A stretch of 50,358 bases of DNA from Acidimicrobiia bacterium (GCA_051986275.1 JBPYDT010000118.1:1-50358), one strand, 5' to 3'; shown: positions 3,000 through 9,603, numbered from the stretch's first letter. A program made the numbers and translations. Notes: generated by a model not told the origin, from the sequence alone.

Positions 3000-5012
3000 A
3001 TGCTCGCCGCCGTGCGCCCCTCGACCAGCGAGCCCCTCGGGCGCGCGGACCGACGGTGGTTCGTCGCCGCGGTCCTGGCGAGCGTCGCGGCGCTGGCCGC
3101 TGTGCTCGTCGTGGCGATACCTCACGCCCGGTCGAACGATCCGACCGTCGACGTCGCCGCCCGGCTCTGGCTCGTGGTCTGCACCGCGGTCGTGCTCACC
3201 ATCCTTGCCTCGCGGCTGCCGCGGGGAACGAAGGGGCTGCTCATCGCGGTCCTCGTCGGCTCGGCGCTCATGCTCGGCGCGGCGTTCATCCTGAGCGCCA
3301 ACGACTTCGCCCCCTTCGGGGCGGCACTCGACCAGAGCCACCGGACGGCCAGCATCACGAAGTTCGCCGCCGGCTGGGGCTGGGTCGATTTCGCCTACAA
3401 GGGCTTGCCCGCCTCGTATCCGCCGCTCAGCTTCTGGGTGCTCGGTCGGCTCGCCGCGCTGCTGTCGATCGCGCCGTGGAAGATGCTGAAGGTCGACGTC
3501 CTGGCCACCGCCTTCCTCGTCCCGGTGCTCAGTTGGCCGCTGTGGCGGCGGGTCGTCGGCGAGGTCAGCGGCGCGGCGGCCGTGCTGGCCGGCGCCCTCG
3601 TCTTCCAAGCGTGGTACCGCCCCATGGCGTGGCTGGTCGTGGCCCTGTTCGTGCCGTGGTGGCTGTGGGGCGTGCTCGGCGTCGGCCGCTCCCCCGCTCG
3701 GTCCCGGCTGGAGCTCGCAGTGGCCGCGGTCATCGGCGCGGCGTTGCTGTGCACCTACTACTTCCCGTTCTTCCTCGGGGTGCTCATGCTCCTCGTGGTC
3801 CTCGTCCTGCGTCGGCCGGCGGCGGCCCGAGGACTCGCGCTCCCACCACAGAACCTGCGCGACACCGGTCTCGTGCTGGGCGGAACCGCGGTGTTGAGCT
3901 CGCCGTTCTGGCTGCCCCTCGCGGTCTCCGTGCTGCGCTACGGGTACCAGTCAAGCTTCAACCGCTACTACGTGTCGGACTTCGTGGACCTGCGCCTGCG
4001 CTTCTTGACCTTCGACGTGCCCGGCATCGTCATGCTCGTCGGGCTGGTGTACCTCCTCCTCACGGCCCGGCGCTCCCCGATCTCACTGGCGCTGCTCGGC
4101 CTCCTCGCGGCGGGGCTGCTGTATTACGTCGCCGGCTACGTCGGTGTCCTCGCGAACGTTCCGATCCTCTCGTTCCAGGCCGATGAGGTTATCGATGCGA
4201 TCCTCGGGGCCGCGGCGGGGCTCGCGCTCGTGGACGGTTGGCAGTTCCTCGTCGGCAGCGAGTGGCTGCGTGCGCGGTTCGGGCGCGCCGGTGTCACCAC
4301 GGCCGCGGTGGTCGCCGGTGTGCTGCTCGCGTTCAGCTTGGCGCAGAGCGCCGTCAGCTCGATCCCCTACGTCAACGAGCAGCGCGCCTCGGTGTACCCC
4401 GCGACGCTGCTCGCCGACTTCCAGCGGGCCGCGGGCGGTTCGGTCACGCACCGCGTCGTGCTCACCGACCTGTGGCAGCTGCCCACCTTCCTCCCCGTGT
4501 ACGTGTTCAACTGGTGGGACACCCAAGCGAGTTCGCCGTCGTCTCGCGAGAACGATCGGACGGCGTTCCTCGATCGCCTCTCGCAGGAGCAGGACCCGGC
4601 CGCCTTCTCGATCGCGCTGCTGCACAACGTCTATGACCGGATCGACGACGTGGTCCTGCGCCCGGGCATGAACGGTGGGTTCGCGTACACGTTCACCGAC
4701 GATGCGTTCCCGCGACCGCCCGTCGTCCGCACCTTCACCTACGCCGGGGTGCTCTTCGCGACGTCCGCGTTCCGACGAGTCAACACGCCCAGCTTCACGC
4801 TCTTCCGAGTCGAGCCGCGTGGTGACCCGCTCCGGGGACTCCGCGCCTGCCCGCGCCAGCCGAGCCGCGCGGGCTGCCAGGCACTCGGCGACGTTGCCCA
4901 CCGCTTCGCGGGCGATGTGGACGCCAACGTGCTCGACCTCGCCCGTCGCTGGGAGGCCGCGCGACGGGGGGATGCCAGCCACCTCAGCGACGTCCGTGGT
5001 CATCGCACCTAG
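3000..5012 (+). CDS. AftA-like arabinofuranosyltransferase (GT-C polytopic membrane glycosyltransferase)
   Basis: About 12 hydrophobic segments plus a soluble C-terminal domain. The loop DQSHRTASITKF...DFAYKGLPASYPPLSFWVLGRLA resembles the AftA signature DQQFRTEYLTR...DMTYxGLPPFYPPGWFWxGGR. ATG 3000 chosen because the longer ORF overlaps secA. Confidence 0.7.
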   Translation: MLAAVRPSTSEPLGRADRRWFVAAVLASVAALAAVLVVAIPHARSNDPTVDVAARLWLVVCTAVVLTILASRLPRGTKGLLIAVLVGSALMLGAAFILSANDFAPFGAALDQSHRTASITKFAAGWGWVDFAYKGLPASYPPLSFWVLGRLAALLSIAPWKMLKVDVLATAFLVPVLSWPLWRRVVGEVSGAAAVLAGALVFQAWYRPMAWLVVALFVPWWLWGVLGVGRSPARSRLELAVAAVIGAALLCTYYFPFFLGVLMLLVVLVLRRPAAARGLALPPQNLRDTGLVLGGTAVLSSPFWLPLAVSVLRYGYQSSFNRYYVSDFVDLRLRFLTFDVPGIVMLVGLVYLLLTARRSPISLALLGLLAAGLLYYVAGYVGVLANVPILSFQADEVIDAILGAAAGLALVDGWQFLVGSEWLRARFGRAGVTTAAVVAGVLLAFSLAQSAVSSIPYVNEQRASVYPATLLADFQRAAGGSVTHRVVLTDLWQLPTFLPVYVFNWWDTQASSPSSRENDRTAFLDRLSQEQDPAAFSIALLHNVYDRIDDVVLRPGMNGGFAYTFTDDAFPRPPVVRTFTYAGVLFATSAFRRVNTPSFTLFRVEPRGDPLRGLRACPRQPSRAGCQALGDVAHRFAGDVDANVLDLARRWEAARRGDASHLSDVRGHRT

Positions 5013-5293
5013 CGGTTGTGGTGGCGGCTCACCTGGCGGCGCAGCTTGTCGACGACGAGGTCCAGGGCGGCTTCCGGAACCGGCGCGGCCGCGCGCGCGG
5101 CGACGGGGGCGTGGCGACGGTGCACGACCACCGCGCAGCGATGGCGACGCGCGATCCGCGGGTTGCGCTCCTCGGTGAAGTCGACCTCGGCCCACGAGAC
5201 GTCCCGCACCATGCGCTCGAGCCGCCCGAGCTTGCGCTCCGCGGCGCTGCGCAGCGTCGAGGGAACGTTCCGTCCGCGTACGACGACGTCCAT
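5009..5293 (-). CDS. hpf: Ribosome hibernation factor (HPF/RaiA family), short 94-aa form
   Basis: MDVVVRGRNVPSTLRSAAERKLGRLER...EVDFTEERNPRI...AALDLVVDKLRRQ; GGGAGG RBS upstream; usual position upstream of secA. Confidence 0.85.
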   Translation of the reverse strand: MDVVVRGRNVPSTLRSAAERKLGRLERMVRDVSWAEVDFTEERNPRIARRHRCAVVVHRRHAPVAARAAAPVPEAALDLVVDKLRRQVSRHHNR

Positions 5294-5376
5294 GCGCGCC
5301 TCCCGTCGGCCGGTCGGGGTTCGCTCGCGCGGAGTGTACGCCCGCACCGCCGGGCCGGCCCCCGGAGCCTCCGGCG

Positions 5377-6825
5377 TCAGTACCGGTAGTGGTCGGGCTT
5401 GAAGGGCCCGGCGACCGGGACGCCGAGGTACGCGGCCTGGGCGTCGGTGAGCGTCGTCAGTCGCACCCCGAGCTTGTCGAGGTGCAGGCGCGCCACCTCC
5501 TCGTCGAGGTGCTTCGGCAGCGTGTACACCCTCCGCTCGTAGAAGTCGCGGTGCGTGTACAGCTCCAGCTGGGCGAGCACCTGGTTCGTGAAGCTGTTCG
5601 ACATGACGAAGCTCGGGTGCCCCGTCGCGCACCCGAGGTTCACGAGGCGGCCCTCGGCGAGGACGATGACGGCGTGCCCGTCGGGGAAGCGCCACTCGTC
5701 GACCTGGGGCTTCACGTTGACCCTCGTGATCCCGGGCACGGCGGCGAGGCCGGCCATGTCGATCTCGTTGTCGAAGTGGCCGATGTTGGCGACAATCGCG
5801 TTGTGCTTCATCTGCGCCATCTGCTCGGCCGTGATGATGCTCGTGTTGCCCGTCGCCGTGACGAAGAGGTCGGCCGTGCGCACCGCGTCCTCGAGGCGCA
5901 GCACCTGGTAGCCCTCCATGGCCGCCTGCAGCGCGCAGATCGGGTCGATCTCGGTGATGACGACGCGGGCTCCCTGGCCGCGGAGCGACTGGGCGCAGCC
6001 CTTCCCGACGTCGCCGTAGCCGCAGACGACGGCGACCTTCCCGGCGAGCATCACGTCGGTCGCCCGGCAGATCCCGTCGACCAGCGAGTGCCGGCAGCCG
6101 TAGAGGTTGTCGAACTTCGACTTGGTCACCGAGTCGTTCACGTTGATCGCGGGGAACAGGAGGGTGCCGGCCTCGTGCATCTGGTAGAGGCGGTGCACGC
6201 CGGTCGTGGTCTCCTCGGTCACCCCGAGGATGGCGTCGGCCATGCGGTGCCAGCACCGGTCGTCCTCGGCCCGGACGCGGCGCAGCATGCCGAGCACGCA
6301 GCGCCACTCCTCGCTGTCGTCGGCGCTCGGCTGAGGGACCGCGCCCGCCGTCTCGTACTCGACGCCGCGGTGCACGGCGAGGGTGGCGTCACCGCCGTCG
6401 TCGAGCAGCAGGGTGGGCCCGCCGGTGTCGGCGTCCGGCCAGCGCAGCGCCTGCTCGGTGCACCACCAGTACTCCTCCAGCGTCTCGCCCTTCCAAGCGA
6501 ACACGGGGATGCCGCGCGCCGCGATCGCGGCCGCGGCGTGGTCCTGGGTGGAGAAGATGTTGCAGGAGGCCCAGCGGACGCGCGCGCCGAGCGCGACGAG
6601 GGTCTCGATGAGCACCGCGGTCTGGATGGTCATGTGCAGCGAGCCGGTGATCCGTGCTCCGGCGAGCGGCTGCGTCGCGGCGTGCCGCTCGCGCATCGCT
6701 ATCAGCCCGGGCATCTCGAGCTCGGCGAGCGCGATCTCCTTGCGGCCGAAGTCGGCGAGGCTCGGGTCGGCGACCTTGCTCGCGGGACGGTCGGTCGAGC
6801 GGTTGGCGGGTGCGGTGGTGGTCAT
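5377..6825 (-). CDS. ahcY: Adenosylhomocysteinase
   Basis: [49 protein letters not shown]-terminal [10 protein letters not shown]; GGAGGAG RBS. Confidence 0.99.
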
Positions 6826-6929
6826 GTCGACTCCTCCGGGCTCGGGCGCGTCGACGCGCCGCAGCGATGTTCGGGGAGTCGGCCCGGATCACCGGGTGAC
6901 AGCTGCGGGCAGCCCGACCGCCAACCAGG
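6826..6929 (-). promoter_or_regulatory. Structured 5' leader of ahcY, candidate translational riboswitch
   Basis: Stems on the minus-strand RNA: CCGCAGC/GCUGCGG (6902-6908 with 6859-6865), CCCGG-UGAU-CCGGG (6883-6896), 16-nt palindrome 6845-6860. CGACUCC (6875-6881) is complementary to GGAGUCG (6828-6834), which overlaps the SD. Confidence 0.5.
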
Positions 6930-7982
6930 CTAGTCGGCGGTGGGACCCATCGCCGCCTTGAGCTGGGCGATCGCGTCGATCGGTCCCGGGTCGACGTCGT
7001 TGTCGAGCGCGAGATAGCACGACACCCAGTCGCCGAGGTACATGAGGTCGAGGAGCTCGGCGAGACGGCCCTCGCCCTCGGCGGTGACCTCGATCACCTG
7101 CTGGACGGCCTCCTCGATCAGCTCGGTCGTGCGGTCGATCCGCTCGGAGAGCCGGGCGTGCTCGAACCCGTGGCGCAGCGACACGAGCGTGAGGAGCTGG
7201 CGCGTCACGTCGCCGTGCTGGCCCCAGCCGCAGATCTCGTTGTGGTCAAGCTCGGGGTACGACGCGTCGAAGGCCGGCGCCTTGGCGTTCTCGTTGATGT
7301 CGCACTTCCAGCGGTAGGCCGCGACCGCCCCGAGCGCGCCGCCCCCGTAGATGAGCGGGATGCTGCGGCCGATGCGACGCGCCAGCTCCCGGGCGGGGTT
7401 CGCCGCGCCCTCGACGCGTGGGGCGCACTGGTCGCGGCGCCGCTTCAGCTGCGCCTGGGCCTCGACCAGGAGCGCACGCCCCTGCGGCAGCAGCCCGGCG
7501 TGGAACACAGCCACGAAGAGCGGCGCGACGAGCGCGCCGATCGCGGCGCGCGGCATCCCCAGGTTCGGGTCGCAGGGCACGTGCACGCCGCCTCGGTCGG
7601 CCGCGAGCGCCGCGAGGTCACCACCCGCCGCGACGGCGACGAGGCGGGCGCCGGCGTCGAGCGCGCCGCTCGCCATGGCGAGGGTCTCTTCGGTGTTGCC
7701 CGAGTAGGACAGCGCGAACGCGAGCGTGCGCGGCCCGACGAACGCCGGGGTGCGGATCTGCTTGAGGACGACGACCGGGACGGGGAGCGACGAGGCGGTC
7801 GCCCGCAGCACGTCGCCGGCGATGCCCGAGCCGCCCATGCCGAGCACGACGATGTTGTCGACCTGGTCGGCGTGGGGCAGCGTCGTGTGGTCAAGGACCA
7901 CGCCGGCCTGCTCGTGGGCGGCCGCGAGCTGCTCGGGGAGCTCGCGCACGGAGTCGAGGAACCCGAGGGTGTCGGGCGCCAC
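6930..7982 (-). CDS. Bifunctional phosphoglucose/phosphomannose isomerase (SIS domains)
   Basis: GMGGSG, SYSGNTEET, RWKCDINENAK, PELDHNEICGW. Confidence 0.92.
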   Translation of the reverse strand: MAPDTLGFLDSVRELPEQLAAAHEQAGVVLDHTTLPHADQVDNIVVLGMGGSGIAGDVLRATASSLPVPVVVLKQIRTPAFVGPRTLAFALSYSGNTEETLAMASGALDAGARLVAVAAGGDLAALAADRGGVHVPCDPNLGMPRAAIGALVAPLFVAVFHAGLLPQGRALLVEAQAQLKRRRDQCAPRVEGAANPARELARRIGRSIPLIYGGGALGAVAAYRWKCDINENAKAPAFDASYPELDHNEICGWGQHGDVTRQLLTLVSLRHGFEHARLSERIDRTTELIEEAVQQVIEVTAEGEGRLAELLDLMYLGDWVSCYLALDNDVDPGPIDAIAQLKAAMGPTAD

Positions 7983-7984
7983 GC

Positions 7985-8221
7985 CTAGGCCTCGAAGGTC
8001 GGCTGGATGCCCTCGGCCGCGGCCTTGGCGACGAGGCGCTCGTGCTCGCCGTCGTCGACGGTCTCGGCCTCGTCGATGAGCATGATCGGGATGTCGTCCC
8101 GGACGGCGTAACGGCGGTGCAGCCGCGGGTTGTAGAGCGCGGACTCGTCGGGGAAGTAGAGCAGCGGGCCCTTGTCCTCGGGGCAGGCGAGGATCTCGAG
8201 CAGTTTCGGGTCGAGCGTCAC
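7985..8221 (-). CDS. Trm112 family protein
   Basis: From GTG 8221: LDPKLLEILACPEDKGPL...YAVRDDIPIMLIDEA; conserved position between manB and the SIS gene. Confidence 0.92.
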   Translation of the reverse strand: MTLDPKLLEILACPEDKGPLLYFPDESALYNPRLHRRYAVRDDIPIMLIDEAETVDDGEHERLVAKAAAEGIQPTFEA

Positions 8222-8226
8222 GGGCG

Positions 8227-9603
8227 TCAGTCTGCCTCGCGCGCCACGAGCGTGAGGACCTCGGCGGCGTGCGCTTGGCACGCGTCGGCGTCGGGCGCCT
8301 CGACGTTCAGGCGCAGCAGCGGCTCGGTGTTGCTCGGCCGCAGGTTGAACCACCAGGCGCCGTGGTCGACCGTGAGGCCGTCGAGTCGGTCTTGGGAGAC
8401 GCCGGCGTACGCGGACGCGACCGCCTCGAGGACCGCCCCGGGGTCGCCGACGCGCTGGTTGATCTCGCCCGACTGGACGTAGCGCTCGTACGGGCGGCGC
8501 AGCGTCGAGAGCGGCATCCCGCTGCGGGCGAGCGCCTCGAGGACCACGAGCGCGGCGATGATGCCCGAGTCGGCGCGGTAGTTGTCGCGGAAGTAGTAGT
8601 GGCCCGAGTGCTCGCCGCCGAAGCTGGCGCCCGTCTCGGCCATGACCGCCTTGATGAACGAGTGGCCGACGCGGGTGCGCACGGGTGTGCCGCCCAGCTC
8701 ACGCACGATCTCGGGGACCGCCTTCGAGCAGATGAGGTTGTGCACGATCGTGCGGTCGGGCAACGGCGCGTCGGCCGGCAGCCCGCGCAGCGTCGATGCG
8801 GCCACGATCGACGTGGTGAGGGACCCCGAGAGGGGCTCCGCGGCGTCGTCGACGAGGAACACCCGGTCCGCGTCGCCGTCGAAGGCGAGGCCGACGTCCG
8901 CGCCTCGATCGCGGACCGCCCGCTGGAGGTCGACCAGGTTCTCGGGCTGGATCGGGTCGGCCGGGTGGTTGGGGAAGGTGCCGTCGAGCTCGCCGTAGAG
9001 CAGCTCGACGCTCACCGGCAGCCCGTCGAACACCGCGGGGACGACGAGGCCCCCGAGCCCGTTCGCCGTGTCGGCCACGATCCGCTGGCCGGCGAGCGCG
9101 TTGACGTCGACGAACGAGCGCACGTGGCGGACGAACGCCGGCAGCAGGTCCTGGTGCTCGACCTCGCCGCGCCGGCCGCCCCCGTCGAGGTGCCCGTCGG
9201 CGACGAGCGCGCGGATCTCGGCAAGGCCGGTCTCCTCCCCCACCGGCGCGGCCCCGGCGCGGCACAGCTTGATGCCGTTGTACTCCGCCGGGTTGTGGCT
9301 CGCCGTGAACATCGCGGCGGGCGCGTCGAGGTGCCCCGACGCGAAGTACACGAGGTCGGTCGAGGCGAGGCCGAGGTCGACGACGTCAGCGCCCGCGGCG
9401 GTCGCGCCGTAGGTGAACGCCGCGACGAGCGGCTCGGACGACGGCCGGGCGTCGCGCCCGACGAGCACGCGGCGCGCCTTGGTGTACGTGACGAACGCGC
9501 CGCCGACGCGCTCGGCGATCGACTCGTCGAGCTGGTCGGGGTACACGCCCCGGATGTCGTACGCCTTGAAGATGAGGTCGAGCGACGCCGGCCGGGGGCT
9601 CAC
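8227..9603 (-). CDS. manB: Phosphomannomutase/phosphoglucomutase
   Basis: FKAYDIRG, TASHNP phosphoserine motif, FDGDADR, GGEHSGHYYF. Confidence 0.96.
   Translation of the reverse strand: MSPRPASLDLIFKAYDIRGVYPDQLDESIAERVGGAFVTYTKARRVLVGRDARPSSEPLVAAFTYGATAAGADVVDLGLASTDLVYFASGHLDAPAAMFTASHNPAEYNGIKLCRAGAAPVGEETGLAEIRALVADGHLDGGGRRGEVEHQDLLPAFVRHVRSFVDVNALAGQRIVADTANGLGGLVVPAVFDGLPVSVELLYGELDGTFPNHPADPIQPENLVDLQRAVRDRGADVGLAFDGDADRVFLVDDAAEPLSGSLTTSIVAASTLRGLPADAPLPDRTIVHNLICSKAVPEIVRELGGTPVRTRVGHSFIKAVMAETGASFGGEHSGHYYFRDNYRADSGIIAALVVLEALARSGMPLSTLRRPYERYVQSGEINQRVGDPGAVLEAVASAYAGVSQDRLDGLTVDHGAWWFNLRPSNTEPLLRLNVEAPDADACQAHAAEVLTLVAREAD

Follow-up and report, generated by a model that had tools for sequence, protein, structure and literature searches.

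A conserved three-way junction in the ahcY leader of mostly uncultured Acidimicrobiia is a candidate SAH-responsive riboswitch

The window, by which we mean the whole stretch of 50,358 nucleotides of Acidimicrobiia DNA that was analysed, carries on its minus strand the genes around the leader studied here, including the gene for S-adenosyl-L-homocysteine (SAH) hydrolase, ahcY, and its upstream neighbours. The locus is made up as follows:

5377-6825, minus strand: ahcY, encoding a 482-aa S-adenosyl-L-homocysteine hydrolase (Pfam AdoHcyase, E 1.9e-147)
6823-6825, minus strand: ahcY start codon
6930-7982, minus strand: bact-PGI/SIS isomerase-like gene, upstream of ahcY, with its TAG stop at 6930-6932
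7985-8353, minus strand: Trm112-like gene, upstream of the bact-PGI/SIS gene
upstream of ahcY, minus strand: phosphogluco/phosphomannomutase (PGM/PMM) gene
ending at 5012, plus strand: AftA-like gene, downstream of ahcY and convergent with it

The AhcY product was also matched by the Pfam model AdoHcyase_NAD (E 1.2e-83). Since the AftA-like gene converges on ahcY from downstream, ahcY looks monocistronic; the convergent stops of the two genes are separated by 364 nt (5013-5376), in which no Pfam-annotated ORF was found. On the 5' side, a gap of 104 nt (6826-6929; mRNA on the minus strand) lies between the ahcY start and the stop of the bact-PGI/SIS gene, and the next junction upstream measures 2 nt (7983-7984). 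The gap, in an operon whose other junctions measure 5 nt or less, had been pointed out in a sequence-only reading of this DNA, which had proposed a translational switch in a structured leader. The elements of the leader, in their order on the mRNA, are:

6927-6932, minus strand: -10-like hexamer TAGCCT (TANNNT), overlapping the TAG stop of the bact-PGI/SIS gene
6914-6919, minus strand: 5' strand of P1, GGUCGG
6902-6913, minus strand: P2 hairpin GCUG-CCCG-CAGC, variable in length and sequence, with an invariant G-C/C-G base
6897-6901, minus strand: J2/3, UGUCA, the sole unpaired junction strand
6883-6896, minus strand: P3 hairpin CCCGG-UGAU-CCGGG with a conserved tetraloop
6877-6882, minus strand: 3' strand of P1, CCGACU, with GACU in common with the anti-Shine-Dalgarno (anti-SD) strand
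6872-6881, minus strand: anti-SD strand CGACUCCCCG, paired to the Shine-Dalgarno (SD) region in the minimum-free-energy fold
6845-6860, minus strand: linker hairpin, a 16-nt palindrome GGCGCGUCGACGCGCC, inside the sequestering helix
6828-6838, minus strand: SD region CGGAGGAGUCG, with GGAG at 6831-6834, 5 nt before the AUG

Of 133 distinct leaders, 127 have a hexamer of the form TANNNT that begins 11-16 nt ahead of the first base of P1; at random positions in the same loci the test succeeds 54 times in 6700 (0.8%). We infer from this placement that ahcY has its own promoter and that its mRNA would begin 0-3 nt before P1. The gap had been taken for a spacer inside an operon; its length is as described, but with a -10-like hexamer in front of P1 it is probably a promoter plus a 5' UTR. 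In four metatranscriptome contig sets, short contigs from relatives lay over conserved parts of the ahcY coding sequence and left 6810-6917 uncovered, and a search of RNA runs gave small word shares only (0.06-0.08). When 131 nt are folded (-66.4 kcal/mol, z = -3.66), a strong hairpin CACCGCCGACUAG / CCUGGUUGGCGGU forms at 6914-6945 (minus strand) that spans the stop codon of the upstream gene and takes in both the -10-like hexamer and a portion of the P1 5' strand; in transcripts reading through from the upstream gene this hairpin would sequester the P1 5' strand.

Taken alone, the 107-nt leader has a folding z of -1.44, and 20 of 200 shuffles were at least as stable. Single-sequence thermodynamics are therefore unremarkable and the case is built on comparative evidence. 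The AhcY protein was searched in 41 related genomes and matched in 40 of them; 30 loci were taken, one of which ends at a contig edge, leaving 29 ahcY-anchored leaders. The element is carried by 27 of these 29 (L029 and L030 are without it), and the motif occurs in at least 15 family codes. A MAFFT alignment of the 27 sequences (A1) has 26 invariant columns, and RNAalifold independently predicts the P1/P2/J2/3/P3 junction including the P1 helix. In the 26 distinct rows of A1, 96.2% of cells are paired. None of 500 shuffles matched A1 in cells paired, in cells changed on both sides or in covariation score; for the number of pairs with changes on both sides and the number of further pair types, however, 280/500 and 214/500 shuffles, respectively, reached the value of A1.

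We then built a covariance model (R1), which was followed by a class-wide model search for further loci, and one exact-pattern scan of GTDB species genomes gave at least 120 stretches. Alignment A2 holds 99 matches from 100 sources. Pairing extends to 97.1% of the cells in its 87 distinct rows, with changes on both sides at 5 pairs, figures to be read with the provisos that much of A2 comes from an exact pattern fixing most of P3 and J2/3, where only the free positions can vary, and that the relatives in either alignment are not independent of each other. None of 500 shuffles reached A2 in any of five measures, and slid controls were 15-57% paired. Both conservation and covariation, on which the sequence-only reading had staked its proposal, are found across related ahcY leaders. 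It is this recurrence with covariation in 27 of 29 anchored leaders, with scores of up to 74 bits and one site per genome, that leaves hardly any credence for the view that the stems are chance products of G+C-rich sequence, or that the leader is a diverged member of the SAH riboswitch family RF01057, to which we return below; what can be said for that view is the single-sequence fold, which is not significant (z = -1.44).

The conserved fold of about 45 nt consists of P1 (GGUCGG/CCGACU), the P2 hairpin, J2/3 (UGUCA) and P3 (CCCGG-UGAU-CCGGG), with the consensus layout [R]GUCGG, then GC, a variable hairpin and GC again, UGUNA, YCCNG-UGWU-CNGGG, and CCGRCU followed by CC. P2 is the most informative helix. 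Three of its four pairs change on both sides in A2, and three or more stacked terminal pairs form in 91 of the 101 distinct P2 elements, whose lengths run from 8 to 69 nt, as compared with 568 of 2020 interior-shuffled controls (28%). P3 has 99.8% of its cells paired in the 87 distinct rows of A2. Its fourth pair is G-C in 20 rows of A1, A-U in 4 and C-G in 2, with the A-U and C-G variants falling in six different family codes, and in the large alignment the counts are GC:75, AU:5, CG:3, GU:2 and UA:1. Covariation supports P2 and P3. The inner five pairs of P1 are invariant or show wobble-only changes, with 97.5% of cells paired (87 distinct rows); its 3' strand is CCGACU in 105 of 131 leaders, and the variants CCGGCU and CCGGCC still pair. 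In both alignments the changes in P1 are wobble or one-sided, with zero double compensatory changes, and the conservation of this helix could partly reflect the anti-SD constraint. A conserved aptamer-like domain with covariation and variable-length stems, as looked for in a riboswitch, is present in these leaders, P1 being without double compensatory change.

The unpaired positions are nearly invariant. Among 131 distinct leaders J2/3 reads UGUCA in 122, UGUGA in 6 and UGUUA in 3 (position 4 being free in the search pattern), and the P3 loop (L3) is UGAU in 121 and UGUU in 10. The sequence-only reading had raised the possibility of a pseudoknot, and no covariation pointing to one was seen: the variants of J2/3 (C/G/U at position 4) and of L3 (UGAU/UGUU) occur without co-variation, either with one another or with further segments, as judged by eye. 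Other parts of that reading fared unevenly. The hairpin CCCGG-UGAU-CCGGG is indeed present at 6883-6896. The outer stem CCGCAGC/GCUGCGG that was said to enclose it exists in the window but is kept in 6 of 131 distinct homologous leaders and clashes with P2, for which we rejected it as a conserved element, and the segment CCGAACAUCGC is not conserved among homologous leaders. P1, P2 and the -10-like hexamer overlapping the upstream stop codon had escaped it. The translational switch in a structured leader survives in its conserved fold and co-varying anti-SD:SD pairing, but the architecture is that of a three-way junction, P1-P2-P3.

The pairing pattern also bears on whether the element acts as DNA. 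The P3 inverted repeat, CCCGG-TGAT-CCGGG, lies downstream of the promoter, about 25-40 bp past the predicted -10 hexamer, where it could serve as an operator for a dimeric transcription factor. The closing pair of P3, however, is U-G in 50 and C-G in 36 of 86 rows, and P1 has G-U pairs as well (GU 54, UG 18), which break DNA symmetry. With G-U pairs this frequent in P1 and at the closing pair of P3, pairs that the opposite strand would turn into mismatches, the structure exists only on the mRNA strand, which argues against a DNA operator. Such an operator would also not account for a P2 hairpin of variable length with compensatory changes, nor for co-variation between the element and an SD region that is some 50 nt distant, and we hold it to be very improbable.

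The partner of the SD is composed of GACU of the P1 3' strand, CC and 3-8 lineage-specific bases. In the window CGACUCCCCG (6872-6881) pairs with CGG-A-GGAGUCG (6828-6838) as part of the minimum-free-energy fold, just as the sequence-only reading had drawn it, and the 16-nt palindrome that it had described is present at 6845-6860; in most relatives the linker position is taken by a G+C-rich hairpin of differing sequence (by eye). The window's genus pairs CCGACUCCCCG with CGG-A-GGAGUCG; other examples are CCGACUCCUG with CAGGAGUCG, CCGGCUCUUUCGA with CCGAAGGAGUUG, and CCGGCCUCCG with CGGAGGACC. The pairs flanking the core were examined in 124 leaders, with CUCC/GGAG as the anchor of an ungapped register. 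On the P1 side the adjoining A:U pair was formed in 97 (shuffle mean 77.5, max 85). On the other side, where all four Watson-Crick pair types occur, the flanking pair was formed in 56 (shuffle mean 28, max 38). For 80 distinct anti-SD 12-mers the mean duplex energy was -13.0 kcal/mol with their own SD region versus -11.05 kcal/mol with those of others, and the own-SD mean was reached by 0 of 2000 permutations. The sequestering anti-SD:SD helix is conserved and co-varies, and GGAGUC is kept beyond what a ribosome-binding site needs.

Minimum-free-energy folds were computed for 126 distinct leaders. In 96 of them four or more bases of GACUCC pair with the 22 nt that precede the start codon, the other 30 being without such pairing to the SD region, and P1 is found in the fold of one leader only. 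When P1, the base of P2 and P3 are imposed on the fold, the median cost is 8.4 kcal/mol (interquartile range 7.0-10.6; 126 leaders), so that the aptamer fold would require strong stabilisation by a ligand or by tertiary contacts, or kinetic control. With the aptamer enforced, the probability that the SD is unpaired goes up in 103 of the 126 leaders, down in 8 and is unchanged in 15, its median moving from 0.20 to 0.40; the predicted gain in SD accessibility is modest. Since P1 and the sequestering helix compete for GACU, a stabilised junction should open the ribosome-binding site, which amounts to ON logic. An expression platform that excludes an aptamer helix is thus found in the shared GACU, the co-varying helix and the change in SD accessibility.

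That the sequestering helix is the predicted ground state in 96 of 126 leaders would fit a constitutive structured 5' UTR without an effector, whether it sets a fixed low level of translation, stabilises the mRNA 5' end or works as an RNA thermometer. A 5'-terminal stem-loop can protect an mRNA, which counts in the same direction. Thermometers and stabilisers, however, usually conserve structure and not sequence, and it would be left unexplained why, in at least 15 families, J2/3 and L3 are near-invariant and P1 and the anti-SD are kept in competition, making a leader of this kind a rather unlikely answer.

Some leaders depart from the common layout. CUCC is absent in L065, L095 and L137, and linkers of 116-171 nt occur in some leaders. 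In genus g8 (L023, L034), in the stretch 60-140 nt before the ahcY ATG, the aptamer gives way to a sequestor-like GACUCCCCAA/UUGGGGAGU helix that lies about 60-70 nt upstream of the annotated ATG, which has its own AGGAGG, and two in-frame GTG codons stand just after the helix; either another type of expression platform or an alternative start could account for the layout. The P1 5' strand, once freed, is seen in several minimum-free-energy folds to pair through GGUCG with UGACC in the start region AUGACC, in the window 6914-6919 with 6819-6825. Such pairing could add a further block to initiation in the OFF state and could equally be a by-product of a common Met-Thr start in G+C-rich genomes.

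We compared the leader with the known RNA families. Rfam 15 (4227 models, including SAM-I to SAM-VI and SAM/SAH) gave no match at gathering score anywhere in the window, so the idea that such a scan might place the motif in a catalogued family found no support. A permissive scan (E up to 10) of 6700-7050 had nothing at the motif; its sole match, to CC1840 sRNA, falls for the most part upstream and scores 20.7 bits (E 1.2) where the gathering score is 50. Likewise, 0 of 20 further leaders had a match at the motif with E up to 5. RF01057 (gathering score 37 bits) matched neither in the window (E up to 10) nor in 36 sampled same-order genomes, in agreement with the sequence-only reading, which had not recognised a canonical SAH riboswitch in the leader. 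That the model can recognise a true member is seen in a sister order, at 44.4 bits in genome G061 (L182/L185, G061:C1:1348397-1348517), where it lies directly before a long-type ahcY. These results, with all Rfam models failing at E up to 10 in the leader and up to 5 in the 20 others, speak against a diverged RF01057 member. Among 151 genomes of the class, G061 was the only one with a canonical SAH riboswitch, and the window's order had none; most genomes of the sister order of G061 have a shorter AhcY type, about 48% identical to that of the window over residues 198-468.

The motif is confined in its distribution. The covariance model matched 30 of 36 sampled same-order genomes, with one strong site each and scores of up to 74 bits; it found the motif in 0 of 115 genomes from other orders of the class and in none of 140 genomes from other classes, and in a phylum-wide sample of 151 genomes it matched the window's genome and one same-order genome only. 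A small-genome family of the same order gave 0 matches in 4 genomes, and the one ahcY leader read there (locus L213, genome G034) is AT-rich and without the motif. A search for a diverged version in L029, L030, L213 and the long-type leaders L183 and L184 of the sister order found none, the best R1 score being 14.9 bits (E 0.077). In L030 (genome G027, same order), four tandem 12-nt units (CCGACTTCCCGA plus A or C) stand within about 60 nt before the ahcY start, directly before GGAGGCTCC-ATG, and the unit resembles the anti-SD segment of the motif.

The association with ahcY is strict. Among 177 collected core-bearing loci, ahcY lies downstream in 169; six others are cut off and two (L064, L105) are chance matches, since the remainder of the motif is missing and they fall in coding sequence of unrelated genes. 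Each genome has the motif in a single copy, and the gene that it precedes is always ahcY and never metH, metF or metK. A second match in the window's genome, on contig 103 (G000:C103:7189-7239; L032 1501-1551; 27.8 bits), has GGUCGG...CCGACU and a P2-like hairpin; we judged it a chance match, since it is without P3 and falls in a coding region whose peptide looks FtsW/RodA-like (by eye). With few exceptions the pattern matches listed belong to MAGs with the record title 'Acidimicrobiia bacterium' or 'Actinomycetota', and cultured isolates are absent from these at least 120 matches, all being metagenome- or single-cell-derived assemblies. Six core-bearing loci (L094, L106, L127, L134, L140, L147) stand under public MAG titles of Bifidobacteriaceae, Bifidobacterium breve, Burkholderiales or Bordetella parapertussis. 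All but L147 score 61-69 bits with the model and have AhcY downstream; in L147 the core is present and the sequence ends 161 nt after it. These labels look unreliable.

As to what the element does, the characters that can be read from the alignments look like riboswitch hallmarks: a compact domain, invariant junction and loop bases and covarying stems, one of them of variable length, at a predicted mRNA 5' end, in strict association with a single gene and with an expression platform that would exclude the aptamer. Gene context alone points to SAH (or SAM) as the candidate ligand. High SAH is toxic and inhibits SAM-dependent methyltransferases, and known SAH riboswitches activate ahcY, metH and metF, as described in PMC1950547. 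This toxicity, together with the activation of ahcY by the known SAH riboswitch, makes SAH-induced translation of ahcY the most economical reading. We therefore favour, with a probability of about 55%, an uncatalogued class of riboswitch at the 5' end of the ahcY mRNA that would sense SAH and switch translation on.

The proposed mechanism would run as follows. Transcription would start a few bases after the -10-like hexamer, and the first ~45 nt of the mRNA would fold into the three-way junction P1/P2/J2/3/P3. The anti-SD (GACUCC with its lineage-specific extension), whose GACU is common to P1, would pair with GGAGUC across the linker hairpin, so that in the absence of ligand the thermodynamically favoured sequestering helix would hide the SD. 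With ligand present, the junction and P1 would be locked, four pairs of the sequestering helix would be lost and the SD would become more accessible, AhcY being made when its toxic substrate SAH accumulates.

The junction offers few unpaired conserved bases from which to build a selective pocket. This scarcity, and the conservation of P1, P3 and the UGAU loop in both sequence and pairing, which is typical of protein-binding sites too, would fit a cis-acting leader to which a small RNA or a protein binds, for instance a dedicated regulator or AhcY itself, so as to stabilise either the junction or the sequestering helix. No candidate binder, however, is found among the neighbours (bact-PGI/SIS, Trm112-like, PGM/PMM, AftA-like), and a variable P2 beside an invariant junction, at the predicted transcript 5' end and overlapping an anti-SD, is the classic arrangement of a riboswitch; we regard recognition by a macromolecule as unlikely. 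Much the same weight goes to a riboswitch with this architecture and SD occlusion that responds to another ligand, be it SAM, adenosine, homocysteine, the AhcY cofactor NAD+ or something else, possibly as an OFF switch. Indeed the structural and comparative evidence is silent on ligand identity, and with ahcY as the only gene controlled, never metH, metF or metK, the regulon gives a single clue. Against such a ligand, the competition of P1 and the sequestering helix for GACU gives ON logic, which suits the substrate SAH over the products; one genome of a sister order has a canonical SAH riboswitch at this very place; and the sole known riboswitch class dedicated to ahcY senses SAH (PMC1950547).

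Under the favoured reading, that of an SAH-induced ON switch, the nearest known relative in function would be RF01057. Like this family, the motif lies 5' of a gene of SAH metabolism, in the ahcY leader, with a presumed logic of turning the gene on when SAH rises, and both combine highly conserved sequence with variable-length stems. Sequence and structure show no detectable similarity: the fold of the motif, some 45 nt long, is a simple three-way junction in which nothing points to a pseudoknot. It stands before ahcY only and its records are nearly all labelled Acidimicrobiia or Actinomycetota, whereas RF01057 is reported before metH and metF as well, and mainly from beta- and gamma-proteobacteria (PMC1950547). 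The SAM/SAH riboswitch RF01727 resembles the motif in being small, in accepting SAH and in controlling translation by way of SD accessibility, but it is an H-type pseudoknot (PMC7367207), as opposed to a three-way junction before ahcY with apparent ON logic.

SAM/SAH riboswitches stand before metK in alphaproteobacteria and are OFF switches. SAM-III (the SMK box) and SAM-VI are compact junction aptamers of Gram-positive or actinobacterial mRNAs, in which the SD/anti-SD helix belongs to the ligand-bound fold, giving OFF logic. They share with the motif a coupling of anti-SD/SD pairing to the binding of a SAM-related ligand; in the motif, by contrast, the anti-SD competes with P1, giving ON logic, and no Rfam match is seen. 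We rate the kind of mechanism, an aptamer set against an anti-SD, as familiar and the putative aptamer class as new. To our knowledge RF01057 is the only riboswitch class dedicated to SAH, and no description of the motif or of a second SAH class was found in the openly available papers searched. We give even odds to the further proposition that the motif is a second SAH-specific class, unrelated to RF01057 and built on a ~45-nt junction, which would have arisen independently in one order of mostly uncultured Acidimicrobiia and would switch SAH hydrolase on when SAH accumulates. Such a class would have gone unnoticed because all of the at least 120 records listed are metagenome- or single-cell-derived.

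If this is true, a second unrelated fold for SAH would be a new example of convergent RNA evolution and would provide a new small scaffold for SAH recognition and possibly for discrimination between SAM and SAH. SAH-based methyltransferase assays currently use the known SAH aptamer (PMC11188199 and PMC11790956), and the motif could potentially become a compact part for such assays. From an evolutionary point of view it would suggest that riboswitch classes of order-level distribution may still be hidden in lineages known almost only from metagenomes.
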